NCBI GenBank assembly: GCA_031409335.1
Contig: JANNWY010000193.1
Location: 1 to 64,000, forward strand
Length of the DNA: 64,000 bases
DNA from: Chthoniobacteraceae bacterium
Lineage (GTDB): Bacteria > Verrucomicrobiota > Verrucomicrobiia > Chthoniobacterales > Chthoniobacteraceae
Direction: 5' to 3'
Part shown: positions 47,307 through 61,414 of the stretch, in pieces
Layout: every line of letters starts with the position of its first letter
How positions within the stretch are numbered: position 1 is the stretch's first letter
Notes under the pieces: model-generated
The model's database searches: none
Told to the model about the DNA's origin: nothing
Seen by the model: the letters and a program-made list of their open reading frames with translations, nothing else
Position numbers and translations under genes: made by a program

Positions 47307-50300
47307 TCAGGAAAGTCCGTCGAGGCGGGACGAGCGCGCTTCCCGGAGTTCCCGTTCGCGCAGCCATGCGAAAATGACCGGCGTCACAATGAGAATATGA
47401 AGGAGACTTGAAACCATCCCGCCGATCACGGGCGCGGCGAGCGGCTTCATCACCTCCGAGCCGACGCGTGTGCTCCACATGATCGGGAGCAGGCTGGCGA
47501 CGATCGTCGCCACGGTCATTACTTTTGGGCGAAGGCGAAGACGTGCGCCTTCCTTGATCGCGTCGAGTAAATCGGCGCGCGAAAAATTTTCGCCGCGCTC
47601 GCTGCGTTTGCGCGCGAGGGCTTCCTCGAGATACACGACCATTACCACTCCCGTCTGAATCGCCGTGCCGAAGAGCGCGATGTAGCCGAACCACACGGCG
47701 ACGCTGAAATTGTAGCCGAGCAGGTATTGCAAGAACACGCCGCCGGTCAGCGCGAAGGGCACGGCGAGGATGACGTGCGCGGCTTCCTTCACGCTGCCAT
47801 AGACGAGGTAGAGCAGCAGGAAAATGATCGCGAGCACGGCAGGCACGATGAGTTGCAGCGTGCGCTTGGCGCGGATTTGGTTTTCGTACTGGCCGCTCCA
47901 TTCGATCGTCATGCCGTCGGGAAGTTTGACGTCGCGCGCGATTCGCTGGCGCGCTTCATCCACAAAGCCGCCGAGGTCGCGGCCCTGCACGTTCGCCTGC
48001 ACGAAGACCCGCAGCCGCCCGTTCTCGCTGGCGATTTCGCTCGGGCCGGTGTTGCGCGAAATCGAGGCAAGCTGGCCGAGCGGGATTTGTTTCCCCGCGG
48101 GCGTCGCCACGAGCACGTCACCGAGGCGTTCGATGTCGTCGCGCTCGTCGCGCGCGACCCGGACTTGGATGGGAAAACGCTGCCGTCCCTCAATGGTCGT
48201 CGTCACATTTTTTCCGCCGAGTCCCGCTTCTACCACATCGAGAATCTGCTGCGCGCGCAGGCCGTAGCGCGCGGCGGATTCGCGGTTCACCGCGATTTCG
48301 AGATACGGCTTTCCCTGCACCCGTGAAGGCGCGACGCCGACCGCGCCGGGGATTTCGCGCACGATTTTTTCGATCTCGAACGCCTTCGCCTGCAACGCAT
48401 CGAGATTCGCACCGAGCACCTTGATGCCGACCTGTGCGCGGATCCCGGTCGAGAGCATGAGGATGCGATTTTCGATCGGCTGGAGAAAGCCGGGCACGTA
48501 GCCGGGGACTTGCGTGAGCTTTTGCGTCAGCTCGGCGATGAGCGCGCCCTTCGTCATGCCCGCGCGCCATTCGTGCTCCGGTTTGAGCATGATCGTCGTC
48601 TCGATCATCTCGACCGGCGCGGGATCGGTGGGCGATTCCGCGCGTCCGAGTTTGCCCGCTGCGGAGAGCACTTCCGGCGTTTGGGAAATGGCGGTGTCCT
48701 GCCACGACATGATGCGTTTCACCTCGGTGAGGCTGGTGCTCGGCAGCAGCACGGGCATAAAAAGCAGCGAGCCTTCGTTGAGCGGCGGCATGAATTCCCG
48801 GCCCATGCGTGGGATGAGCGCGAGCGCGCCGACGAGCATGAGCGCGGCGCAGGCGAGGACGGATTTGCGATGCGTGAGCGCCCAGTCGAGCGTGGGATTG
48901 TAAATCGCGAGCAGCCCGCGCATGACCCAGTTTTTTTCCTCGGAATGGAACGGGCCTTTGACCAGCAGCACGCAGAGCACGGGGACGATGGTGACCGCGA
49001 GCAGCGTGGAGCCGATCATCGCGAAGGTCTTCGTGAAGGCGAGGGGATGAAACAGTTTCCCTTCCTGGCCGGTGAGCGCGAACACTGGCACGAACGCGAG
49101 AATGATGATCGCCATCGCGAAGAAGATCGGGCGGCCGACTTGCTTCGATGCGGCGAGGACCACATCGAATGTTTCACCACGGGTCAGCGCCGCGCCCTTT
49201 TTCCCCTCCGCCTCCTCGCAATGCCGGATCACATTTTCCGTCATCACGATCGCGGCATCGACGAGCACGCCAATGGCGATCGCGATGCCGCTCAGCGACA
49301 TGATGTTCGACGTGATGCCGAACTGCCGCATGAGGATGAACGAGATGAGAATCGAGACCGGCAGCGGAAACGTGACGATGAGGATGCTGCGGAAATGGAA
49401 CAGGAAAACGATGTGCGCGAGCGTGACGAGGATGATCTCCTCGGTAAGCGCGTGCTTGAGCGTGGCAATGGTGCGGTCGATCAATTCGCTGCGGTCGTAG
49501 AACGATTTGATCGTGACACCCGGCGGCAGGCTCGGCGCGATTTGCGCGATTTTTTCCTTAATGCGAGCGATCACTTCGCGCGCGTTTTCACCGGTGCGCA
49601 TCACCACGATGCCACCGACGACTTCGCGCCCGTTCACATCCAGCGCGCCGCGGCGGAAGTCGCCGCCGATCTGCACGGTGGCGACATCGCGCAGGTAAAT
49701 CGGCGTGCCTTCGCGCTCGGCGAGCACGGTCTTTTCGAGATCGGCGGTGGACTGAATGAGGCCGATCCCGCGCACCACGAATTCCATGCCGTTTTCCTCG
49801 ATCACCTTGCCGCCGACGTTGAGGTTGCTCTGACCCACGGCTTCCATCACTTCCTGCAGCGACACTTTGGCCGCGCGCATTTTCATCGAAGAGACCTCAA
49901 TCTGATACTGCCGCACGAACCCCCCGACACTCGCGACCTCCGCGACGCCGGGCACCGCATTCAGTTGATAACGCACAAACCAATCCTGCACCGCGCGCAG
50001 TTCGCCGAGGTCGTGGCCCTGCTTCGCATCATCCACATCGAGGTAATACTGGAAGACCCATCCGAGCCCGGTCGCGTCCGGGCCGAGCTTCGCGGTGACG
50101 CCGGCGGGCAGGATGTCGCCGAGATAATTCAGTCGCTCGAGCACGCGCGTGCGGGCGAAGTAGTTGTCGATCTTGTCGTCGAAAATAATCGTGAGCAGCG
50201 AGAAGCCAAACATCGAATTCGCGCGCACCGTTTTCACTCCGGCGAGGCCCTGGAGATTTACGGAAAGCGGATACGTGATCTGATCCTCGACCTCCTGCGG

Positions 50301-50471
50301 ACTGCGCCCCGCCCAGTCGGCGAAGACGATGACTTGGTTTTCGCTGAGGTCGGGGATGGCGTCGATCGGCGTGCGGCGCAGCTCGAAGATGCCGAGCGCA
50401 ATGATGAAGAGCGTGGCGCACGCGACGAGGAAACGGTTTCGCAGCGACCACTCGATGAGGCGCGGGATCAT
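47307..50471 (-). CDS. cusA: CusA/CzcA family heavy-metal RND permease
   Basis: [56 protein letters not shown] overlap with cusB. Confidence 0.93.
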
Positions 50472-52159
50472 GGCTTCACCTCGCCGCCGCATTCGAGCAT
50501 TTCGCGGCCAAAGTACGGATTGCGGATGGGCGCGGAGAGTTGCATCCATGCGGCTTTGGCGGGCGCGCCGGGGAAGGAGTCGGCGGTCATCGGGCAGCGG
50601 TAGATTTTCACCGTGGCGAATGCCGGATCGCGCGCGCGCAACTGCGCGACCCACGGGACCAGCGCATCGCCGAGCGGCTGGAATGCCTTGCGCGCCATCG
50701 GCAGGTCGGGCGCTTCCCGCAGGTCGAGAGTGCTCGCGACTGCCGGCACTTCGTCGCCGAAAACGGCGGTGAGCCGCGCGCGATTCTCCGCCGCAGTCTT
50801 CGCGAGTTGATTGAAACCGGCGAGGTCATCCGCGGCGAGCCGTTGCGCCAGCGCGTCGGCGAAAACGAAAAATTCCCGCACGGCTTCGCGCTGCGTGTCG
50901 GTGAGATCGGATGTCATTGTCCGCGCGGGCGCCACGGATTCCCCACCCCGATTGAGCTGCGCCTGCGCATCGATCAGCAGGTTGCCATTGGTCACGACGT
51001 TCTCGCCTTCCGCCAAGCCGCTCGCGACCTCGTAAAAGTCGTCACCCACACGCCCGAGCTTCACTTCGCGCGGTTCGTACACACCCTCCGCTTTCACCAC
51101 ATACACTAGCGGATTCGCGCCGGTAGCGAGGACCGCGGATCGTGGCACGGTCAGCGTTTCCGGCGTTTCGACGCGGATCACGCCGTTGGCGTAAACGCGA
51201 TGCAGCAGCTCGTGACGATGCCTCGCGGGGTCGCCGACGTGCGGGTTGTCGATGACCACGCGGATGCGCGCGGTGCGCGTGTCCATCATCACGTTCGGAT
51301 CGATGAATTCGATCGGCGCGGTGTAGGTTTTTCCTGGCACGGTGGGCGTCGAAATCTCGACCGTCTGGCCGATCTTGATCCACGCGAGATCGCGCTCGTA
51401 CACGTCACCGACGAACCACATTTTCGCGAAGTCCGCGATCTCGAAGAGCACGTCGCCCTCCTTCACATACTGGCCTTCATAGACCTTGCGCTCGACGACG
51501 GTGCCCGACTTGGGCGCGAGCAATTCGATGTTGTCGCCGGTTTGCTCGGGGAGCTTCTCGATCTGCGCGAGCGTGAGGCCCATGCGGCGCAGTTTTTGGC
51601 GGCTGCCAGCGAGGCCGGCTTCGCGTTCGGGTGAGGGCGGCTGCTTCAGCGCGAGCAGGTATTCCCCGCGGGCGACGATCAGTTCGCGGCTGAAAAAGGA
51701 GACGAGCGGCTGGCCCTCGGTCACTTCCGCGCCGACGGAAGGCACGAACAGTTTTTCGATGCGGCCCTCGACCGTGGCAGACAGTCGGCGATGCGCGGAA
51801 TCGTCGTCGTCGATCTGTCCAGCGACGTGCAGCGAACGGCGCAACGGCTCGCGCTTCACGGGCGCGGTCGCGACGTGGAGCACGTTGATGCTTTGCGCGC
51901 TGAGCGTGACGAGATTTCCGGCAGCGGGCTCCGCCGCCGCACCTTCGTACACCGGCACGAGTTTCATGCCGCAGATGGTGCAGTCGCCCGGTTTGTCGGA
52001 TTTTATCCACGGGTGCATCGGGCTTTGGTAAAATAGGACACGCCGCTCGGCAGAGGGCGTGGAATCAGGCTTTGCGGGCAGTGTGCGCGCGGCGATCCAG
52101 CCGGCGGTGGCGGCGGCGGCGACGAGGAGAATGGTGCGGATGGAGTTTGGAAAAGACAT
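50468..52159 (-). CDS. cusB: CusB-like RND periplasmic adaptor with heavy-metal-binding N-terminus and DUF3347-like C-terminus
   Basis: YQSPMHPWI...[16 protein letters not shown] core; YRCPM...W.Q....IRNPYFG..MLECG. Confidence 0.9.
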
Positions 52160-52943: not shown

Positions 52944-52993
52944 GATGGTGCGCGGTACAGGGTTCGAACCTGTGACCCCTACCGTGTCAAGGT
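52944..52993 (-). repeat. att site: duplicated 3' part of tRNA-Val (50 bp)
   Basis: GATGGTGCGCGG...CCGTGTCAAGGT is identical to 61338-61387. Confidence 0.97.
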
Positions 52994-52999
52994 GAGGGG

Positions 53000-53905
53000 T
53001 TACACTGTAGCCGCGTCTTCGTTGCCGTTTCGTTGCCGTTTTTCCCGCGCCCACTTCCGCTTCCGGGAGCGAATTGGCGGCTTCGATTCTGCCGATACGG
53101 CCTTCGCGCCGACGATCGCGGAAACACGGCCCTCGTTCTCAATCGGGATGTGAAAGCGAGTCCCGGCAACGTCCACTGTCAGCTCGCGCCTCCACACAAC
53201 CGCCGATGTGGCGAACCCGCGCGCTTGTTCCTCGCCCTGCTTGAGCGTGATGACACCGCAAAGGGGATTCCAAAGCCGATAATGCAATTGCGTGGCCGTG
53301 GCCGATTCATCGTCGCTCCATGCGGGATTGTCTTTCGCCGCAAACGCCGCATTGCCGCGCATCCCGGCCCGCAGCGCTCCCATCACAACGTCGGACGTTT
53401 TAGTTTGTGCCGTGGCATTGCGCAGTAGCGCCGCCGTCGTCTCCTCAATCCCGAACTCGGCGCGCATCTCCTCGATCCATTGCGAGAGGACGCACACGAA
53501 CGCCCTCAGCTTCGCAGGAGTCTTTTTCGTTTCTGAGCTATTCTCTCGGGACGCCCTGAGCATGAAGATGATCGCATCGGAGGCGCGTTTCTCGATGTGC
53601 TCGAATTCCCCATCGCTGTATTCCATCGCCTGCCACGCCTCCCACGTCTCCGACGTGTAGGGCTCGCCATTAAGTGCAACTGGCACGCCATCGGGCTTGA
53701 GTAGTGAGGCCGGGTCAACGCCAGTAAATGCCGCGATGCGGTTTGCCAGCTCTGCCGACATCAGTGACAGATACCCTCTGCTTTCGATGCTTTGGACTGT
53801 AGGACATGAGCATCCAACCAGAGCGGCGAACCCTTGCTGCGTTAGTCCCGTGGCCTTACGCAAGGCTTTGAAGGCTAGCTTTAGATGGGGATTGGTCACA
53901 GGCAT
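53000..53905 (-). CDS. Cro/C1-type HTH transcriptional regulator (putative repressor)
   Basis: LRKATGLTQQGFAALVGCSCPTVQSIES...LANRIAAFTGV; divergent from the xis-rep operon. Confidence 0.8.
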   Translation of the reverse strand: MPVTNPHLKLAFKALRKATGLTQQGFAALVGCSCPTVQSIESRGYLSLMSAELANRIAAFTGVDPASLLKPDGVPVALNGEPYTSETWEAWQAMEYSDGEFEHIEKRASDAIIFMLRASRENSSETKKTPAKLRAFVCVLSQWIEEMRAEFGIEETTAALLRNATAQTKTSDVVMGALRAGMRGNAAFAAKDNPAWSDDESATATQLHYRLWNPLCGVITLKQGEEQARGFATSAVVWRRELTVDVAGTRFHIPIENEGRVSAIVGAKAVSAESKPPIRSRKRKWAREKRQRNGNEDAATV

Positions 53906-53906
53906 G

Positions 53907-53956
53907 ACTTGTATAATACAAGTTTAGTTAGTCACCACAATAACATTCTCGTTGTG
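53907..53956. promoter_or_regulatory. Divergent promoter/operator region (genetic switch)
   Basis: Palindrome ACTTGTAT-A-ATACAAGT (53907-53923) containing TATAAT/TATTAT; second IR CACAA-N11-TTGTG (53936-53956). Confidence 0.7.
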
Positions 53957-53986
53957 ATTACTTACAATGCGCGCCCATTAGTCGTC

Positions 53987-54175
53987 ATGCCAACTAAACA
54001 ATACAGCAACATCGAGCAGCTATCCGAGAAGACCGGCATAGCGAAACGCACTATTCGTTCCCTCTATCAGCAGCGCAAAATCAGCGGGATAAAAGCCGGG
54101 CACCGCACCCTGCTCTTCGATGCGGAAAAGGTCTGCGCCGAACTCGCAAGGTTCGAGGTAAAGGCCGTCCAGTAA
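53987..54175 (+). CDS. Excisionase/AlpA-like small HTH protein
   Basis: 62 aa; IEQLSEKTGIAKRTIRSL...I..IKAGHRTLLFD..KV. Confidence 0.78.
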   Translation: MPTKQYSNIEQLSEKTGIAKRTIRSLYQQRKISGIKAGHRTLLFDAEKVCAELARFEVKAVQ

Positions 54176-54375
54176 TGCGCGCCATAATTAAACCCGTCAT
54201 CCCAAAGATTGCCCACGAGCGCGGATACGTGCCAGTAACCGTCCCTTACCGCCCAAATGAGCGGGACGCCCTACGCAGGGCATTGGAAGGCATGAAGGGC
54301 GTGCGTTACCTCTGCGTCGAGTCAACCAAAGGCCGGGGAATCTCCATTTGGCGTTTAGCCAGTGAAGTGAAGTAA
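54175..54375 (+). CDS. Hypothetical protein
   Basis: 66 aa; TAATG coupling to the upstream gene. Confidence 0.65.
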   Translation: MRAIIKPVIPKIAHERGYVPVTVPYRPNERDALRRALEGMKGVRYLCVESTKGRGISIWRLASEVK

Positions 54376-54421
54376 CCGCAGAACAGAAAGCCGCTTCGCA
54401 TCTATCACGGATTTTTAAGTC

Positions 54422-55258
54422 ATGAATTACACAAAACTTTTCGCATCCATCATCACGTCAACCATCTGGACGGAAGATGACACGACGCGAATCGTGTGGA
54501 TCACAATGCTCGCCAGCGCCAGTAAGGATGGGGAGGTAATGGCGAGCGTCCCGGGACTGGCACGGATAGCCGGGGTATCAATGCAAGCGTGCGAGGCCGC
54601 ACTGAATAAATTCCTATCGCCGGACCCACACTCAAGAACGAAAGACGATGAGGGTCGAAGGATCGAGGTAATTGACGGCGGTTGGCAACTGCTGAATCAC
54701 AAGAAATACCGCGAGATGGCCAGCAAGGAGGAATCCAGAGAGGCGGAAGCGAATCGCAAAGCTCGCTACAGGGCGAAGCTAGCCAGAAACGGAAAGTCCG
54801 GGATGTCCCACAATGTCCCGGACATGTCACATGAAGTCCCAAAAAACCGGCACATAGCAGAAGAAGATACAGAAGAAAAAGCAGCAGCAGCAGCGATCGA
54901 CCTTTTCTCCGATCCCGAAAGCCCCAGCTCGGAAAACGACTTCGTGCAATCATGGAACGCACTCCCAGAGCCGTTCGCCAAAATCCAAGAAATGACCGAA
55001 GATATGGGAACTAAACTCAAGGCGAGGATGGCAGATAGGTTCTGGCGTGAGAATTGGCGAACAGCCGTGAAACAAATCCCGCAAAGTCCGTTCATGCGAG
55101 GGGAGGGCGAAAATGGATGGGTTGCAAGCGCGGACTGGTTTCTTAAACCCGATTCCGTGGATAAAAGCATTGAGGGTAAATACCGCAACGGCGCAGGACG
55201 ATCAAAAGCCCGCCCCAAGCCACTGCCAAGCGCAGCGGACGCCAGAAAGGGGCGGTAA
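54422..55258 (+). CDS. Phage-type replication initiator (replisome-organizer-like)
   Basis: N-terminal YTKLFASIITSTIW...RIVWITML...GLARIAG...PDPHSRT...GRRIE..DGGW.LLN.KYR; C-terminal WN.....PFMRG....GW.ASADWFLK.....IEGKY; internal iteron-like repeats. Confidence 0.72.
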   Translation: MNYTKLFASIITSTIWTEDDTTRIVWITMLASASKDGEVMASVPGLARIAGVSMQACEAALNKFLSPDPHSRTKDDEGRRIEVIDGGWQLLNHKKYREMASKEESREAEANRKARYRAKLARNGKSGMSHNVPDMSHEVPKNRHIAEEDTEEKAAAAAIDLFSDPESPSSENDFVQSWNALPEPFAKIQEMTEDMGTKLKARMADRFWRENWRTAVKQIPQSPFMRGEGENGWVASADWFLKPDSVDKSIEGKYRNGAGRSKARPKPLPSAADARKGR

Positions 55259-55542
55259 TGAAAAGAGCCATGCCCCGACCCACTAAAAAGCAGCTTGCTG
55301 AGTTATTGGATGAGCCCACCCACGAAGGCGTCACGTTACGCCAGCGACTTGAGCAAACGGAAGCCATCCTGAACGCGACTGACTCACGCGGAAGGCTGTG
55401 CGTCACGCGCTCTCAAATCTCCACTTTGCTCATCGGCCTTCGATCCTACGCCGGGAGGCATCCACTGTCAGACGCGATGATTGCGAGGCTAAAAGCCACC
55501 AATGGCCTAGCAGCCAGTCACTTAGTTCAAAGAAGATACTGA
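55258..55542 (+). CDS. Hypothetical protein
   Basis: 94 aa; TAATG coupling to rep. Confidence 0.6.
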   Translation: MKRAMPRPTKKQLAELLDEPTHEGVTLRQRLEQTEAILNATDSRGRLCVTRSQISTLLIGLRSYAGRHPLSDAMIARLKATNGLAASHLVQRRY

Positions 55543-55626
55543 CATATATGTAAGCCGCTCCTGCCGTTACGGTTATTCTCCCGGCGGGAGAAATTCCATT
55601 CACTCACGAACTCATCACCCACTACC

Positions 55627-55983
55627 ATGAAAAAAAGCAGACTCGATCAAATCGTCGGTCCCGAACACTTAACCGAAGACCAAGCGCGGGCGGTAGGTAA
55701 TGCCGTCGTCCGCTTCTTCTATGCTGAATACGAAGCATTCGGACCACGCATCAAAGCCGCTGCCACCGCGCAAGATCGCGATGCGATGGCCGCTCTTCGC
55801 TTAGAGGCAAAGGGGAACACGGCTTACCTTTGCAACTGGAATGCCAGAACTAAAGCGAAGTCGGAAAAGCTGGAACTCCTCGAAAAGTATTGGGGCGACA
55901 CCGCCGATAGCTTGACCGAAGCACTTACGCGAGACTTACCACCAAAGGAAGATTCTGAGGGCGGGGAATGGAAGCAATACTAA
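55627..55983 (+). CDS. Hypothetical protein
   Basis: 118 aa ORF on the same strand as the operon, following a short spacer. Confidence 0.62.
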   Translation: MKKSRLDQIVGPEHLTEDQARAVGNAVVRFFYAEYEAFGPRIKAAATAQDRDAMAALRLEAKGNTAYLCNWNARTKAKSEKLELLEKYWGDTADSLTEALTRDLPPKEDSEGGEWKQY

Positions 55984-55984
55984 C

Positions 55985-56013
55985 TTGACAAGTTAAAAGC
56001 TCTGCCATTTACT
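55985..56013 (+). promoter_or_regulatory. Putative sigma70 promoter for the capsid gene
   Basis: TTGACA-17nt-TTTACT upstream of a ~200-nt structured leader. Confidence 0.45.
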
Positions 56014-56210
56014 CGCATTCAGACAGACGAACCTTCCGTGCCTTATGGGTGCCGTTGGTTTGAAAGTTCGGCAAGCCTCACGCTCGTTGCGCATTCGCGC
56101 TGCCAGCCGCGCCAAAGAGGCAGAAAAGTGCGGCGGCTCTCTCATCCCGGTAGCGGACTACCGGGCACCCTTTCTTGCTCCCGCAAATCAAGCTCCTACT
56201 GAGTAAATTC

Positions 56211-58013
56211 ATGCCTATTCGCACCCTAAAGATACCAGCAACCCTCTACCGCTCGGCGACGATCGAGAGCAAAAAGGGGAAGCTCTCCATGAGCATTTCC
56301 AGTGATGCCCCCTGCCTTCGCGATGACTGGACCGGCGAAAGATATTGGGAAGTTTTAGACCATAGCCCCGGCGGATTCGCCGATACCCGCCTTCGCACTG
56401 GCTTGCCACTCCTGTTTAATCATAACAGGGACCAACATCTAGGACGCGCGAAGGGTTTTCAATGTGACGGCCACAAAATAACTGTCACGGCCCACGTCTG
56501 GAATCGCAGTGCCTTCGCACAGGGAAAGAAGGCGGACATGGAGGCTGGGAGCCTCGTGGACACCTCCATTGGCTACACGATCTTGGACGAGGGAAAGCAA
56601 ATCGGAAGGAAGGATGGACACCCAATCTATCGGTTCAAGTGGGAGCCGCATGAGCACAGCCTTGTAACCGTTCCCGCGGATAGCTCGGTCGGAGTAGGCA
56701 GAAGCCACAATCCCGCCGAGTTCATCGAAATTTCAATTCAAGATAACCAAAACCAAAACCAAATAGATACCAACTATATGCCAGCACCTACAACACAAAC
56801 CCGAGAGAGAATGAGTCACGAACAGCTTCTTGAGCATCAAAATAAGATGCGCCAAACGGTCGCCGGAATCTCGAATCCCCAGTGGCGGGAGCAAGCGTCG
56901 GGATTTATAGACGAGGCAATTCTTAACCAGCAAACCTTCGGCGAGTTTATCGTGCGTTGTCGGGATAGCTTCAAGACCTCCAGCGTGGCGATCGACTGCG
57001 ATACTTACGGATCAAGGGACTTCTTTGAAGCCCGGAACGGCAGTCGGCGTTCAATCGGCGAGCAAATCGCGCGGCATCCCGATATGCTCCAGTTTAGCAA
57101 AGGCGGGAAGCGGGCGGTCGCGTTCGATTTGAAAAACGTCCGTGCGTTCAACGAACTCCGCCAGCGCTCCACAACTACCACGACAAACGCTGGCGTTGTC
57201 ACTGAACAAATGCCCGGCATTCAAGGGATGGCGTTTGAAACACTGACAGTCGCCGACTTGCTCATGCCGGGAGTGACTAGCGGCGGGGCTGTGTCGTTTG
57301 CGAGGGAGGACAGCTTCACAAGTGAAGCGACCACAGCGGGCGAAGCATCACTAGCCACTGAGCAGACGTTCTCTATCTCGCCAGACACGGCCCCGGTAAA
57401 GAAGGTCAGCGCGTGGACCAAGATAAGCGATGAGCTGTTGGCCGACAGCCCGGCCTGCGCGGATCAAATCGGAAACCGCTTAGGGTTTGCTGTGAACAAG
57501 GCTAGCGACCTCCAACTGTTGTCAGGTGATGGCATGGGAACCAATATCAAGGGGATTCTCACAACCGCTGGCATCCAGACGGTTCACAAAGGAGCAGAGT
57601 CCGCGCTTGATACCATCAGGCTTGGGATTGGCGCTATTGATAGCAATTCCGATTACCGCGCAACCGGCCTTGTCATTCATCCAACGCAGTGGACAACGCT
57701 TTCTTTAATCAAGGACACGACGGGCCGATATATCGTTGGACAGGTGTTAATGCCAAACGAGTTCGGGATCATTCTTCGCATTCCTACACTTTGGGGCCTG
57801 CCTGTCTCCGTGTCCAAATCAATGGCTACAACTTCGGTGCTGGTAGTCAGCCGCGATGCCGGGTCCGTATTCCGCAGGCAGGGGTTGAGCGTGGAAGCGA
57901 GTAACAGCAACGAGAACGACTTCCTCAAGGGCTTGATTACCATTCGCGCCACTGAGCGCCTAGCCCTTGCCATCTACAACGCAACCGGGTTCTGTGAAGT
58001 CACCGGCCTGTAG
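56211..58013 (+). CDS. Prohead protease - HK97-type major capsid protein fusion
   Basis: Protease part: EVLDH, PLLFNHN, SIGY, WEPHEHSLVTVPAD.SVGVGRS. Capsid part: PGI.....LTVADLL..G.T, VKKVSAWTKISDELLADS, QLLSGDG...IKGI, KDTTGRYI, LWGLPV, FLKGLITIRATERLALAI. Confidence 0.9.
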   Translation: MPIRTLKIPATLYRSATIESKKGKLSMSISSDAPCLRDDWTGERYWEVLDHSPGGFADTRLRTGLPLLFNHNRDQHLGRAKGFQCDGHKITVTAHVWNRSAFAQGKKADMEAGSLVDTSIGYTILDEGKQIGRKDGHPIYRFKWEPHEHSLVTVPADSSVGVGRSHNPAEFIEISIQDNQNQNQIDTNYMPAPTTQTRERMSHEQLLEHQNKMRQTVAGISNPQWREQASGFIDEAILNQQTFGEFIVRCRDSFKTSSVAIDCDTYGSRDFFEARNGSRRSIGEQIARHPDMLQFSKGGKRAVAFDLKNVRAFNELRQRSTTTTTNAGVVTEQMPGIQGMAFETLTVADLLMPGVTSGGAVSFAREDSFTSEATTAGEASLATEQTFSISPDTAPVKKVSAWTKISDELLADSPACADQIGNRLGFAVNKASDLQLLSGDGMGTNIKGILTTAGIQTVHKGAESALDTIRLGIGAIDSNSDYRATGLVIHPTQWTTLSLIKDTTGRYIVGQVLMPNEFGIILRIPTLWGLPVSVSKSMATTSVLVVSRDAGSVFRRQGLSVEASNSNENDFLKGLITIRATERLALAIYNATGFCEVTGL

Positions 58014-58113
58014 CTTGTCCTAGGCTTTGCTCGCGCCGTTTCATCGCGAGCTTGCACCGACCGCTGGCGGTGGGGTTTACCAGCGGGCTCCCCTTCCTCG
58101 CGGATTAGGGAGC

Positions 58114-58165
58114 GGGTCCTTCCCAAAGGTGAGGGCATTAGCAGGTTCCTCGGGTGCCCTCTGTC
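58114..58165 (+). other. Putative cos-type packaging site (cosQ-like GGGTCCT followed by CAGGTT)
   Basis: GGGTCCT at 58114-58120 matches lambda cosQ, and lies in the non-coding gap directly upstream of the small-terminase-like gene. Confidence 0.55.
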
Positions 58166-58209
58166 GCCGGTTATCACACTTTCCATAGTGGCAACAGCAC
58201 GTCTTTTCC

Positions 58210-58680
58210 ATGAGCCTCCTATCCATAAACCAGCTTTCCAGCCTCACCGGACACAGCCGCGAACACGTAAAACGCTCGCTGTCGGACCTGCCATTTACCG
58301 AGGGCGCGAAGGGTGCGCACCTATACGATGCAACCCGCGTCCTAACTCTCAGGCTTAACGCTCACGGCCAGCTACTTGCCACCGAGCAGGAAAGCAGACG
58401 CAGTTTGAACGAGGCTAAAAAGCGCGTCCTTGAGTTGCAGGAGCAGTCGCTTAGGAAAGAGCGAATTCCGCTCAGTGTAGTGCAGAGAATCAATTCCCGC
58501 GTCTTGGATACAGTCGCCCACATATTAAAATCCCGGCGCGGTAAAGTTCTGGATGAGCACACCATGAAGGACCTATTCCACGAGCTATCCGCCGCCGGGG
58601 ATGGGGTAGATGGCTTTGTGAATCCGCCCGCCTCCATGCCTCCCACTAAGCCAAAGAGTAAGCCACGCCGAAAGAAATGA
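58210..58680 (+). CDS. Terminase small subunit-like protein (Nu1/DUF1441 type)
   Basis: N-terminal wHTH LSINQLSSLTGHSREHVKRSL...G...HLYD; coiled coil; ERIPLSVV motif; sits after the capsid gene and cos-like site. Confidence 0.7.
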   Translation: MSLLSINQLSSLTGHSREHVKRSLSDLPFTEGAKGAHLYDATRVLTLRLNAHGQLLATEQESRRSLNEAKKRVLELQEQSLRKERIPLSVVQRINSRVLDTVAHILKSRRGKVLDEHTMKDLFHELSAAGDGVDGFVNPPASMPPTKPKSKPRRKK

Positions 58681-58862
58681 GCCCGAAAGACGACCGCCGC
58701 TGCGAGCGCCTGCTCCTAAAGATGTTCGCGGAAGTCATCCGCGAAATCTTCAAAACGCCGATTCAGTGGGATTCCGAGCCATCCATTGCCAGCGCCGTTA
58801 AGCGCAGCGCACCGCCACGGCTCACGAAAGGCAAATCCAAGGGGATGGGTGCGCCCCGGTAG
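58677..58862 (+). CDS. Small hypothetical protein coupled to terS
   Basis: 61 aa; ATGA overlap with the terS stop codon. Confidence 0.45.
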   Translation: MSPKDDRRCERLLLKMFAEVIREIFKTPIQWDSEPSIASAVKRSAPPRLTKGKSKGMGAPR

Positions 58863-58937
58863 CAATCAAGGGCCGTGGCGGGCATCCTCGCGCAAAGCGA
58901 TCATCTCAGTTCGCCCGTATTGGAGCCATGCCAGCCT

Positions 58938-59270
58938 TCACCTTGGCGGGCATTGGAAACATTCCATCACCTTGCGAAACAGCGGCAGCCTTCGCGCCGT
59001 CGAAACCACTCCGCGCCGGGCACCGATGAACTCCCGGCGAATCACGTAGAGATGATCGCACCGAACCGCCGTTGCGTTGTCCAAACCGTCTGCTTTATCC
59101 AACACGAAATGGATCGCCTTCGGTTGGAAATTCGGGCGCACCGAGCGGCAGAAAAGCCCGTTCACTTCCGCAAAGTCCGCATTCTCAGCGCGGGCGGGAT
59201 TCGAGAGAATCAGAACGGGGTGACTTCCTTCCTTCTCGAAAGGGTAGTCATAGATTTCCCATTGCCTCAC
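58938..59270 (-). CDS. PemK/MazF-like toxin
   Basis: RQWEIY..PF....HPVLILSN...GLDNATAVRCDHL..I.......RGVVS; GTG start overlaps the upstream stop (GTGA). Confidence 0.75.
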   Translation of the reverse strand: MRQWEIYDYPFEKEGSHPVLILSNPARAENADFAEVNGLFCRSVRPNFQPKAIHFVLDKADGLDNATAVRCDHLYVIRREFIGARRGVVSTARRLPLFRKVMECFQCPPR

Positions 59271-59443
59271 CGAGCGTGCTGGCGGCATACCGCCTCACCG
59301 ATGCGGTTCGCTTCCTCGATGTCCTCCGCGTCATACCGCAGCGGTGAATGAGTCGCGCCCGCTCCACGAAGCATCCGCACCGGAAGAGCGGGTTTCTTTC
59401 GCGCGAGCTTTTTGGGGGATAGTTTCGCAACGGTGGTTTTCAT
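59267..59443 (-). CDS. Putative antitoxin (58 aa)
   Basis: Basic N-half and acidic C-half (YDAEDIEEANR); coupled to the ligase-like gene (TGATG) and the toxin (GTGA). Confidence 0.55.
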   Translation of the reverse strand: MKTTVAKLSPKKLARKKPALPVRMLRGAGATHSPLRYDAEDIEEANRIGEAVCRQHAR

Positions 59444-60039
59444 CACACGGGAACAGACCACAGGGCGTGCTGACGCGCAATCAAATCGAACTCGGCGAGA
59501 TGCTGCGGCTTGAACTTCAAAAGTCCGTCCACACGTCCCGCCCGGTATGAGCGGCCCCGCCGATGGATCATCAAGCCCTCGCCTCCTTTCGACACAACAC
59601 GCTCCAACATCTGCGGGAGTGAATCCATCGACGGCAAAACTTCCATCGGCACCACTTCCGCGAATTCGCCTAGATCAAGCCGCATCATTGCCGCATGTCG
59701 CAACGCGAAATCTCCCGCCACAGTCGGCGCATCAAAGATCATCAAACGCAGTGAACGCCAGTTTCCGGCCTTGCTCGCGACCGCACGGGAGACTTCATCC
59801 CGCGCGCCACGGCCCGCCCACAGCTCGCAATCGAGAATTCGGCGGGGAAGCCCCTCGGTGAACCAATCAGGGGCATTCACGGCCTTGCCAGATCGCAGGA
59901 AAAGCCGCGTGCCAGTCCACCGAACGCGCCAGCCATCTAGCTTTTCCACGACGTAGGAGCCGGAAAGATCGCCGTCGTTTCGGTCGAAATCGAAACCGTG
60001 CATCAACTTGTTAATGGACCTTAACATTTGTCCTGGCAT
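59443..60039 (-). CDS. ATP-dependent DNA ligase adenylation domain only (LigE-like, no OB domain)
   Basis: Motifs I EKLDG.R, III LDCELW, IIIa MIFDAP, IV GEGLMI, V LLKFKP; stop ~20 aa after motif V. Confidence 0.82.
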   Translation of the reverse strand: MPGQMLRSINKLMHGFDFDRNDGDLSGSYVVEKLDGWRVRWTGTRLFLRSGKAVNAPDWFTEGLPRRILDCELWAGRGARDEVSRAVASKAGNWRSLRLMIFDAPTVAGDFALRHAAMMRLDLGEFAEVVPMEVLPSMDSLPQMLERVVSKGGEGLMIHRRGRSYRAGRVDGLLKFKPQHLAEFDLIARQHALWSVPV

Positions 60040-60053
60040 CGCTATTTACCGAG

Positions 60054-61196
60054 TCACGCGGCGCGGGAAATCGAGACAACCTTTCCGTCCCGCGCTGGCG
60101 CGATCTTCCAAAAAGCTGCCGCGTCTTTCGGGCGAACAAGTTCGCGATAATGACGGAAGACAATCGAAGGGCTGTTGCCCATCTCCAAAGCGAGCCGTGC
60201 CGTGTCTCCAATGACGGGCAGGCGATATGATCCAAAACTGTGACGCAGCGCGTTCTGTGGCCAGTTCTCGCGCATCCCGGCCCGGTCCCTGTCCGCCTCA
60301 AGTTTCTTCCGCGCTCCAATCGGGAGAACGGGGCCGGATGCCTTCGCGTGTGCCATCAGCCATTCCCGCAGGTTGTCGGAAATTGGAATCAGTCGGCGGC
60401 TTCCCGTCTTCGCCTTCGCGGCCTTCACTTCGATCAAGCCCGCTTCCAAATCGACTTCCGCCCAATCGAGCCTTTCGAGTTCTGCGGATCGTAGGCCGGC
60501 AAATGCACCGATGGACCAATACGGCAGAGTTTCCGCGCTCGCCGATTCGAGAAGCCGCGCCGTCTGCGCGACCGTCAGAATCCCAATCTCGCCGGATCGC
60601 TCCTTTGCCCGCTCCACGTCCTCAATCGGATTGCGCTCGGCGTAACCCTGTCGCCGGGCAAAGCTGAAAAGCGTTCCGAGACGGCTGCGCGTCGTGTAGC
60701 GGGAAACCGCTCCAACGGAGAGCCCGCGAAGCCAGTCATGAACTTCTTTCGCTGTGATGTCCGCCACCATGCGCTCGCCAAACGTCCGCGCGAACGCATC
60801 GAACTTTAGCCGGATGTCCCGCAGATAGTCCGCGCTCGCACCATCGGCCTTGCGAGTCGCCAGCACTTCCGCCGCAACGTCGGAAAACGAGCGGCTTCCC
60901 GTCACCCGTCGCAAGTGCGCCGCGAAAAACTCCGCCGCATCCAAAATCGTTTTGCCAAACGGTGCCACGATCGCATCGGCCTTTTTTGCCAGAACGCGCA
61001 ACTCGGTTGGAAATTCCGCGCCCTCCGTTCCCTGATTGATCGTCTCAATCGTCTTTTGTTGAGCGAACGTCTCTGCCTCCTTTTTCGTTCCGAAAAACCG
61101 CCGGGCTCGTTTCCCGTCATCCTTGAAATTGACGACGAACTTGAGCAAGGGCCGGTTGGAATCGGCGTATGAGCGAATCTTGAATTGGGTTCTCAT
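60054..61196 (-). CDS. Tyrosine recombinase/integrase
   Basis: FAGLRSAE, KAKT..RRLIP, NALRHSFGSY, MGNS....RHY; adjacent to the tRNA att site. Start 61196 or 61223. Confidence 0.93.
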   Translation of the reverse strand: MRTQFKIRSYADSNRPLLKFVVNFKDDGKRARRFFGTKKEAETFAQQKTIETINQGTEGAEFPTELRVLAKKADAIVAPFGKTILDAAEFFAAHLRRVTGSRSFSDVAAEVLATRKADGASADYLRDIRLKFDAFARTFGERMVADITAKEVHDWLRGLSVGAVSRYTTRSRLGTLFSFARRQGYAERNPIEDVERAKERSGEIGILTVAQTARLLESASAETLPYWSIGAFAGLRSAELERLDWAEVDLEAGLIEVKAAKAKTGSRRLIPISDNLREWLMAHAKASGPVLPIGARKKLEADRDRAGMRENWPQNALRHSFGSYRLPVIGDTARLALEMGNSPSIVFRHYRELVRPKDAAAFWKIAPARDGKVVSISRAA

Positions 61197-61339
61197 GTGG
61201 CGACCGTTGCCATCTGTTGCCATTTTTTCAACGAAAAACGCGCAAAAATGAGGATTTACCCGTCAGCATGAGTCACAGCGTTTTTTACCTCCAATCGCCC
61301 GCGCCCCCTGTATTTATGCGGTTTCCAGAGTAATTGAGA

Positions 61340-61414
61340 TGGTGCGCGGTACAGGGTTCGAACCTGTGACCCCTACCGTGTCAAGGTAATGCTCTACCAC
61401 TGAGCTAACCGCGC
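61340..61414 (-). tRNA. tRNA-Val (GAC)
   Basis: GCGCGGT TA GCTC AGTGGTA GAGC A TTACC TTGACAC GGTAG GGGTC ACAGG TTCGAAC CCTGT ACCGCGC A CCA folds into a full cloverleaf with anticodon GAC and encoded CCA. Confidence 0.97.

Follow-up and report, generated by a model that had tools for sequence, protein, structure and literature searches.

The core of a phage-inducible chromosomal island (PICI), as defined for SatelliteFinder, comprises an integrase (int), a regulator, a primase-replicase, a capsid gene and a small terminase gene (terS), with no portal gene, and a common four-component variant, type B, has no recognised primase and places terS before the capsid gene (10.1101/2022.09.14.508007). 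Capsid-forming PICIs (cf-PICIs) encode a portal, a large terminase (TerL), head-tail connectors and an HNH protein (10.1101/2022.09.08.507074). For EcCICFT073, a cos-type PICI, interference persisted when the capsid gene was deleted, and packaging is in phage-sized heads (PMC6092414, PMC6739421, PMC9026076), and small capsids are made in the case of PmCI172, another capsid-gene carrier. The element phiRv1 combines an integrase, an excisionase, a primase, a terminase, a prohead protease and a capsid protein, and no particles are reported for it in print (PMC12268328). EPIPs of Mycolicibacterium, of about 11 kb, have small heads visible by electron microscopy (PMC12822802). We analysed a stretch of 64,000 nucleotides from a Chthoniobacteraceae bacterium (contig JANNWY010000193.1 of assembly GCA_031409335.1, positions 1 to 64,000; hereafter referred to as the window), in which an island occupies positions 52944–61387. 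The overall explanation that we favour, with good confidence, is that this island is a phage satellite resembling PICIs, from a lineage that occurs in the host's order: it carries a shell gene, a packaging signal and a packaging adaptor while lacking the other parts of a virus, and is most likely a parasite of bacteriophages.

The island is bounded by direct attachment (att) repeats of 50 nt (52944–52993 and 61338–61387, both on the minus strand), which are 100% identical and spaced 8,394 bp apart. The repeat duplicates the 3' half of tRNA-Val(GAC) (61340–61414, minus strand), the intact target gene, which it overlaps. GC content is 56.3% within the island, versus 62.0% genome-wide. From the tRNA inward there is a series of genes for an integrase, a truncated DNA ligase, a probable antitoxin and a MazF-like toxin, opposed by a block containing an excisionase gene (xis), a small open reading frame (ORF), a lambda O-type initiator, two ORFs, a protease-capsid fusion, a cos-like site, terS and a further small ORF. 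An XRE repressor gene at the tRNA-distal end points outwards, divergent from xis, and the frames of all the core genes are open. The tyrosine integrase (60054–61223, minus strand, 389 aa, reading away from the tRNA) matches phrog_1 (2e-31) and is 52% identical to that of a related island, L097, with the same catalytic-region residues. The 301-aa XRE/helix-turn-helix (HTH) repressor-like regulator (53000–53905, minus strand; HTH_31, 1.2e-6; phrog_8, 2.4e-9) is homologous to the regulators of L097 (E 7e-7) and of a second relative, L185. The excisionase-like HTH protein (53987–54175, plus strand; TIGR01764, E 0.005) is 51% identical to its counterpart in L097 and 66% identical to that in L140; its start is probably at 53987, the ORF list giving 53885.

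The 278-aa lambda-O-like replication initiator (54422–55258, plus strand) matches phrog_10469 (4e-22) and phrog_345 (6e-13), has homologs in prophages of genomes G610 (E 2e-10) and G953 (E 8e-10), and gave no primase match. The phage-type initiator first proposed is supported. Inside its gene, at 54794–54840 (plus strand), five heptamer repeats spaced 9–11 nt apart form a probable origin; five heptamers per 50 nt were obtained in 0 of 5000 codon shuffles of the gene, for a pattern that was picked after being seen. That these iteron-like repeats act as an origin is assumed from O-type replicons. The protease-capsid fusion (56211–58013, plus strand; 600 aa, or 612 aa if started from a TTG at 56175) consists of a prohead protease (PF04586, 8e-6), a linker or scaffold and an HK97 major capsid domain (PF05065, 1e-38), and matches HK97 capsid structures at E 1e-40. 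It is followed by the cos-like site (58114–58174, plus strand), with a cosQ-like block, a cosN-flank-like block (58142–58150) and a third block near 58168, and then by the gene for a 156-aa Nu1-like small terminase (TerS; 58210–58680, plus strand; phrog_141, 1.6e-5; DUF1441, 1e-4). None of the 15 window ORFs scanned matches portal, TerL, connector, tail or lysis families (0 of 13 in an NCBIfam scan), and none matches head-tail connectors or HNH, four small ORFs carrying no family label. The initial annotation, which had described an apparently intact set of these core genes between two att repeats about 8.4 kb apart, with no portal, TerL, connector, tail or lysis genes, is borne out, the family matches of TerS being weak.

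Set against the PICI core, the island has an integrase with att repeats, a capsid gene, an XRE-type HTH repressor as regulator (judged from HTH_31 and phrog_8) and no tail, holin or cf-PICI-specific genes; a small terminase is indicated more weakly, by the phrog_141 match, the neighbours in the Atlas and the position after the cos-like site. The primase-replicase module is replaced by the O-type initiator, and the order int-regulator-replication-capsid-terS is broken by inversion of the regulator-to-terS block, so the island is not filed as a canonical PICI. With four of the five components (int, regulator, capsid, terS), a size near the 9.5-kb median and no tail or holin gene, it resembles type B, the terS-before-capsid order of type B being that of the sister elements presented below. 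On the published description and the genes present, the element would correspond to a four-component PICI of type B.

A precedent in gene order is EcCICFT073, a small att-bounded island with int, a regulator and a replicon, followed by a capsid gene and by a cos that contains a cosQ-like block and is immediately followed by a Nu1-like gene; the order capsid, cos, rppA in the CFT073 record is that of the window, and both lack portal, TerL, tail and lysis genes. The two differ in regulation (XRE repressor and xis in the window, alpA in EcCICFT073), in replication (O-type initiator versus primase), in the capsid (an HK97-family protein fused to its protease versus a lambda gpE-family capsid with a decoration protein) and in the inversion of the window core block relative to int. 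The elements phiRv1 and phiRv2 of the Mycobacterium tuberculosis complex, of about 10 kb, share an integrase, excisionase, terminase, prohead protease and capsid with the island, but are described as having a primase rather than an O initiator and separate protease and capsid genes, and belong to another phylum. As in the cf-PICI EcCIEDL933, there is a capsid with its own maturation protease, and capsid-protease fusions are reported in cf-PICIs of Firmicutes, but the window has no portal, TerL, connectors or HNH and the island does not belong with the cf-PICIs. EPIPs, like the island, carry TerS and a capsid gene with no portal among the genes listed; a serine integrase, head-tail adaptor, stopper and tape measure described for EPIPs are not found in the window. 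PICI-like tycheposons carry a major capsid protein or terS, one but not both (10.1101/2020.12.28.424599), whereas the window has both. Marine VEIMEs, which are also small integrative satellites and some of which are in Verrucomicrobia genomes, have no major capsid protein (PMC9618062), in contrast to the island. No P4-like Sid, Psu, Delta or alpha primase-helicase was found among the family matches of the window ORFs. The claim that the gene set fits no known satellite exactly is not supported: a capsid gene and terS without a portal constitute the PICI core, the capsid-cos-rppA order exists in EcCICFT073, and a protease, a capsid and a terminase are encoded by phiRv1. With these precedents, we rejected categorical novelty.

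The same design was sought in other Verrucomicrobiota genomes and recurs in the host's order, twice with both att ends. Portal- and TerL-less elements were found at seven loci (L097, L185, L193, L196, L187, L101 and L170), and the two bounded by att repeats at both ends lie at other tRNAs. The first of these, a complete 9.15-kb element of G756 (L185), is inserted at tRNA-Arg between 46-bp repeats and carries int, a repressor, xis, an O-type initiator, terS and a frameshifted capsid gene. The second, a complete 10.2-kb element of G870 (L187), lies at tRNA-Pro between 39-bp repeats and carries int, xis, a primase, an HNH-like ORF and a ClpP-capsid fusion, with no TerS found in it. In L097, at a tRNA-Arg, int, the repressor and xis are followed by a replication ORF, a homolog of the 118-aa window ORF described below, terS and a capsid gene, the contig ending 39 nt later. 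The element of G1051 (L193) has int, an initiator, terS and a capsid gene, that of G1026 (L196) a primase, terS and a broken capsid gene, and L101 a primase, a terS-like ORF and a ClpP-capsid fusion, primases being present in the sisters L101, L187 and L196. At L098 and L099 the capsid gene is followed by a small Cys-rich ORF and then by terS. This zinc-finger-like ORF follows the capsid gene at L193:6430–6651, L098:1441–1602 and L191:6796–7092 (E 6e-11 and 6e-8); it was not found in the window. Tape-measure-like ORFs without a family match lie 3' of the capsid gene in two sister elements, those of G756 (L185:15813–17285, 490 aa) and G500 (L170:3708–5342, 544 aa). The 490-aa ORF has a 425-aa homolog in the tail region of the G963 prophage (E 1e-11). 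Few tape measures have been reported in satellites (PMC12822802).

Within the host family, matches were obtained in 5 of 151 genomes: that of the window, G500 (L170, an element at tRNA-Asp with no portal), G006 (where a fragment lies close to tRNA-Cys) and the full prophages of G005 and G503. In a second family (f14), 8 of 301 genomes matched at nine places, corresponding to four portal-less elements, four full prophages and one unresolved case. The matches in G825, G576 and G582 are prophages, and a phylum sample of 400 genomes gave nine matches besides the window, seven of them with a portal match in the 1.5-kb flanks in which they were viewed.

The phylogeny of the capsid domain was inferred on an alignment excluding phrog_617-type rows, duplicates and the partial proteins P0007, P0011 and P0028. 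The window sequence, although on a long branch, fell within a clade of nine rows with strong support (100/99, and 98/99 with a mixture model). All five rows of this clade with known context lack an adjacent portal gene, and none of the seven prophage or phage rows lies inside it. Constraining the window capsid into the nearest prophage clade, a group picked after the first tree was seen, was rejected by the approximately unbiased (AU) test (p = 0.008). The closest capsid fusions are metagenomic proteins with 36–46% identity. No record covering 80% of the fusion was found among phages or plasmids, capsid patterns gave no match in genome_contigs, a single-protein scan of viral_contigs yielded no close relative, and the whole assembly contains no second capsid gene of the window type. 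Portal-less elements carry capsids from at least three tree places or families (the window's clade, the ClpP type and the phrog_617 type); the capsids of G1026 and of the ClpP pair lie elsewhere in the tree and that of G500 comes from another family, implying repeated origin or refitting of the design.

These data bear on whether the island is what deletion has left of a full gpA-type prophage, with both ends retained. Same-order prophages do have initiators and integrases (G503) related to those of the island, protease-capsid fusions of up to 34% identity and a cos similar to its own. However, the prophage order is terS-terL-portal-capsid, whereas the window capsid gene precedes cos and terS and the sisters join terS directly to the capsid gene; the capsid clade is separate; satellite TerS proteins hit phrog_141 (6 of the 7 with a match) and those of prophages phrog_57 only (5 of 5); and similar sizes are repeated at different tRNAs. 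We therefore rejected a plain prophage remnant, on recurrence, gene order and the separate capsid clade, and consider such an origin very unlikely. The recurring att-bounded elements and the separate capsid clade uphold the original proposal of a satellite-type element, and we hold with high confidence that the island belongs to a satellite lineage.

The three-block cos-like motif was present 5' of terS in six satellites and two prophages, with a near match in a third prophage, and was located upstream of terS in 8 of the 9 sites tested. Blocks one and two are similar to the right end of lambda and to the EcCICFT073 cos. A model built from eight other elements placed the window site first among 127,984 window positions and seventh among 15.9 million genome positions, and a model from the two prophages alone still ranked it first, this ranking being partly circular because the window was among the sequences in which the motif came to light. 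The three-part model replaced a two-part pattern that few phage loci matched; the G953 site misfits at the third block and was excluded from training. The site is presumed to be a cut site. In the Atlas, the window TerS scores 0.95 to DUF1441 and 0.93 to Phage_Nu1 clusters, and the TerS proteins of the sister elements match the same families. A TerS search over 48 candidates returned only the protein itself. In length, the window TerS (156 aa) is on a par with those of G610 (157 aa) and G963 (136 aa), a hint that it may fully replace the helper TerS rather than act as Rpp does. RppA and the satellite TerS proteins both weakly match PHROGs 57 and 141, and no Rpp chain was found in PDB searches.

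Prophages of the same order encode a gpA TerL, a lambda-family portal and protease-capsid fusions. Three of them (G610, L183; G963, L194; G953, L197) are gpA-type prophages with tail regions almost wholly unmatched in PHROGs and candidate tape measures of only 357–425 aa. Prophages of this type, an uncharacterised phage group, are the likely helpers. The lambda-like helper initially envisaged is therefore supported as a type, by the gpA TerL, lambda-family portal and common cos-like motif of related genomes, but no such helper was found in the host genome.

A life cycle like that of cos-type PICIs is the best reading of the gene content. Infection by, or induction of, a lambda-like helper with a gpA TerL would lift the repressor, and Xis and Int would excise an 8.4-kb circle, which the O-type initiator would replicate, starting at the repeats inside its gene. 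Either by itself or in an Rpp-like pairing with the helper TerS, the satellite TerS would bring the helper TerL to the satellite cos, and the protease-capsid fusion would enter proheads built on the helper portal, the helper supplying portal, TerL, connectors, tail and lysis. The most likely outcome would be small shells fitting 8–10 kb and excluding the helper genome. The protease residues H83, S131 and E160 are invariant in 38 of 38 fusions, and the H/S/E residues are retained in all four satellites checked; given this invariance, the fusion probably self-matures. The building or remodelling of capsids first proposed is an inference. We think it reasonably probable that the capsid protein acts in head assembly, and give somewhat less than an even chance to small self-matured shells. 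Still more tentatively, these elements may constitute a lineage between classical PICIs and cf-PICIs, with a protease, scaffold and shell in one polypeptide assembled around a gpA-type helper portal, their own TerS steering the helper TerL to a shared cos, and some members adding a tape-measure-like gene.

An alternative role for the capsid protein, to which we give the same tentative credence as to that intermediate lineage, is that of a modifier or decoy that co-assembles with or poisons helper heads, as Ccm does, or is dispensable, the DNA travelling in helper-sized heads through TerS and cos redirection. The phage-sized heads of EcCICFT073 and the capsid deletion without effect on interference mean that small shells do not necessarily follow from the presence of a capsid gene in a PICI. 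The long branch of the window capsid and its lost conserved residues point the same way, as does the persistence of capsid-less relatives, since 36 of 38 integrase-centred regions of the host family have no capsid, terminase or portal match in the available DNA (many contigs being short). Retention of the protease triad, linker and HK97 domain at about 30–46% identity is nevertheless more than a decoy seems to need, and the capsid fusions of portal-less elements come, as noted above, from three or more tree places or families. A domesticated encapsulin-like compartment, or DNA packaging with neither portal nor helper, was considered on the basis of a weak match to NF041188, an encapsulin of family 3 (E 1e-8, well short of the cut-off), and of portal-less HK97 mini-genomes of about 8.75 kb for which helper-free packaging has been proposed. 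Those mini-genomes are without terminases, whereas the window has TerS and a cos-like site matching that of gpA prophages, which make sense only with a TerL and a portal; we rejected the encapsulin reading on these grounds and regard this whole alternative as the least probable of all.

Several observations weigh against a working satellite with its own head. The TerS matches to phrog_141 and DUF1441 are below cut-off, and hhalign profile comparison gave a probability of only 0.9% for TerS and RppA. The window cos block deviates at the base beside the presumed nick and in the third block. The window capsid retains 39 of 49 conserved columns, the lowest of 45 rows, and four of the nine rows of its clade have no genomic context. 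The capsid gene is broken in three of six other genome-borne copies (G756, G1026 and G006), with assembly error possible, and L097, L098 and L101 extend only to the capsid gene or its vicinity, leaving their far sides unseen. The DNA ligase is truncated, and a search of the host genome (98% complete, 326 contigs) with two TerL and two portal families gave no match to PF03354, PF05876, PF05136 or PF04860. Together with the inversion of the repressor-to-terS block (53000–58862) relative to int, which adjoins the regulator in L097 and L185, the low capsid conservation, deviant cos, broken relatives, truncated ligase and missing helper suggest that the lineage may be a real satellite of which this copy is ageing and immobile. 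Identical att repeats, open core frames, an integrase catalytic region equal to that of L097 and a retained protease triad speak against this, and we find an ageing copy a little less probable than an even chance would make it, while the odds that this copy still works fully are balanced. No convincing inverted repeat was found flanking the inverted block. In contigs of four runs from one study, depth over the element resembled that of the flanks, at 10.5 for X1 versus 7.4–14.4 in the flanks, and 6.7–8.4 for X2 versus 5.8–8.1. No att joint was seen among the joints viewed in these runs, 15 further joints lying outside the view, but contigs drop rare forms and this absence carries no evidential weight.

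The integrase family of the window is present in 80 of the 151 genomes of the host family; as it is widespread and mostly found without head genes, the head module is an optional add-on to tRNA islands. Among genome_contigs, its three named relatives are from one Chthoniobacter sp. metagenome-assembled genome (MAG; 50% identity) and two Verrucomicrobiae MAGs, which support the phylum indirectly, and the integrase patterns gave no match in viral_contigs. The tRNA islands sharing this integrase (L140–L179), of about 5–17 kb where complete, lie at tRNA-Arg, Leu, Lys, Ser and Gln and have diverse replicons and cargo and no head genes. The tRNA-Val(GAC) gene is also used in two other genomes, with integrases 58–63% identical. 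At the tRNA-Val(GAC) loci of three same-genus genomes, no element protein was found within 0.9–1.5 kb, and none joined the left flank of the window. A second att-bounded island of the window's genome (G000:C316:42913–52591, about 9.6 kb, at tRNA-Thr, with a 48-nt repeat 92% identical) has a related integrase, primase/helicase-like ORFs and an 849-aa cargo gene, with no capsid match.

The remaining genes of the island include small ORFs and cargo. A 66-aa ORF (54175–54375, plus strand) has no family match and no homolog in the fetched loci, and a 94-aa ORF (55258–55542, plus strand) has a homolog in L178, a 15-kb tRNA-Gln island (E 8e-10). The weakly conserved 118-aa ORF (55627–55983, plus strand) shows 28% identity across 116 aa with the ORF that occupies the corresponding place in L097 (E 0.098 with blastp, 0.001 with phmmer) and has no Atlas match. 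A 61-aa ORF (58677–58862, plus strand) without a family match follows terS. Not listed in the initial annotation are a MazF/PemK-like cargo toxin (58938–59288, minus strand; PF02452, 8e-4; 43.5% identical to a homolog on contig C214), a probable 64-aa antitoxin (59267–59461, minus strand), proposed from its position upstream of and overlapping the toxin and without a family match, and a 198-aa fragment of an ATP-dependent DNA ligase (59443–60039, minus strand) without the C-terminal OB domain. A promoter and terminator scan performed at chance level. The left flank (47307–52159) contains a heavy-metal efflux pair that, judging by how its translations look, is CusA/CusB-like, and the cargo of the G870 element (L187:8305–10293) includes a 500-aa GHKL-type ATPase and a SWIB-domain ORF, possibly related to defence.

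The initial annotation knew of no characterised satellite in this phylum. VEIMEs had already been predicted in Verrucomicrobia, but no satellite tested by experiment was found in the literature, in which, subscription papers not being covered, VEIMEs, without capsid genes, were the only satellites found for Verrucomicrobiota; the string 'Verruco' is absent from the main text of the SatelliteFinder report, the supplement of which may list such hosts (10.1101/2022.09.14.508007). What is new is the host lineage, the O-type replicon and the dedicated lineage of self-maturing capsids, not a new class. The element is real and belongs to a real, apparently undescribed satellite lineage of PICI-like character in Verrucomicrobiota, whose helper type can be identified and is pointed to by the shared packaging signal. 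It extends capsid-encoding PICI-type satellites to abundant, little-studied bacteria of soils and sediments, and because portal-less capsid elements are as frequent as full prophages in family f14 (4 versus 4), satellites may be among the prophages counted there. Capsid genes of PICIs have no settled role, since deletion in EcCICFT073 gave no interference phenotype and phiRv1 particles are unreported, and a single-gene protease-scaffold-capsid of a dedicated lineage is directly testable by expression with and without the helper portal. If the element does build its own small head on a stolen portal, it would provide a clean system for determining the function of capsid genes in PICIs, and Verrucomicrobiota would have their first satellite and helper worked out as a pair.

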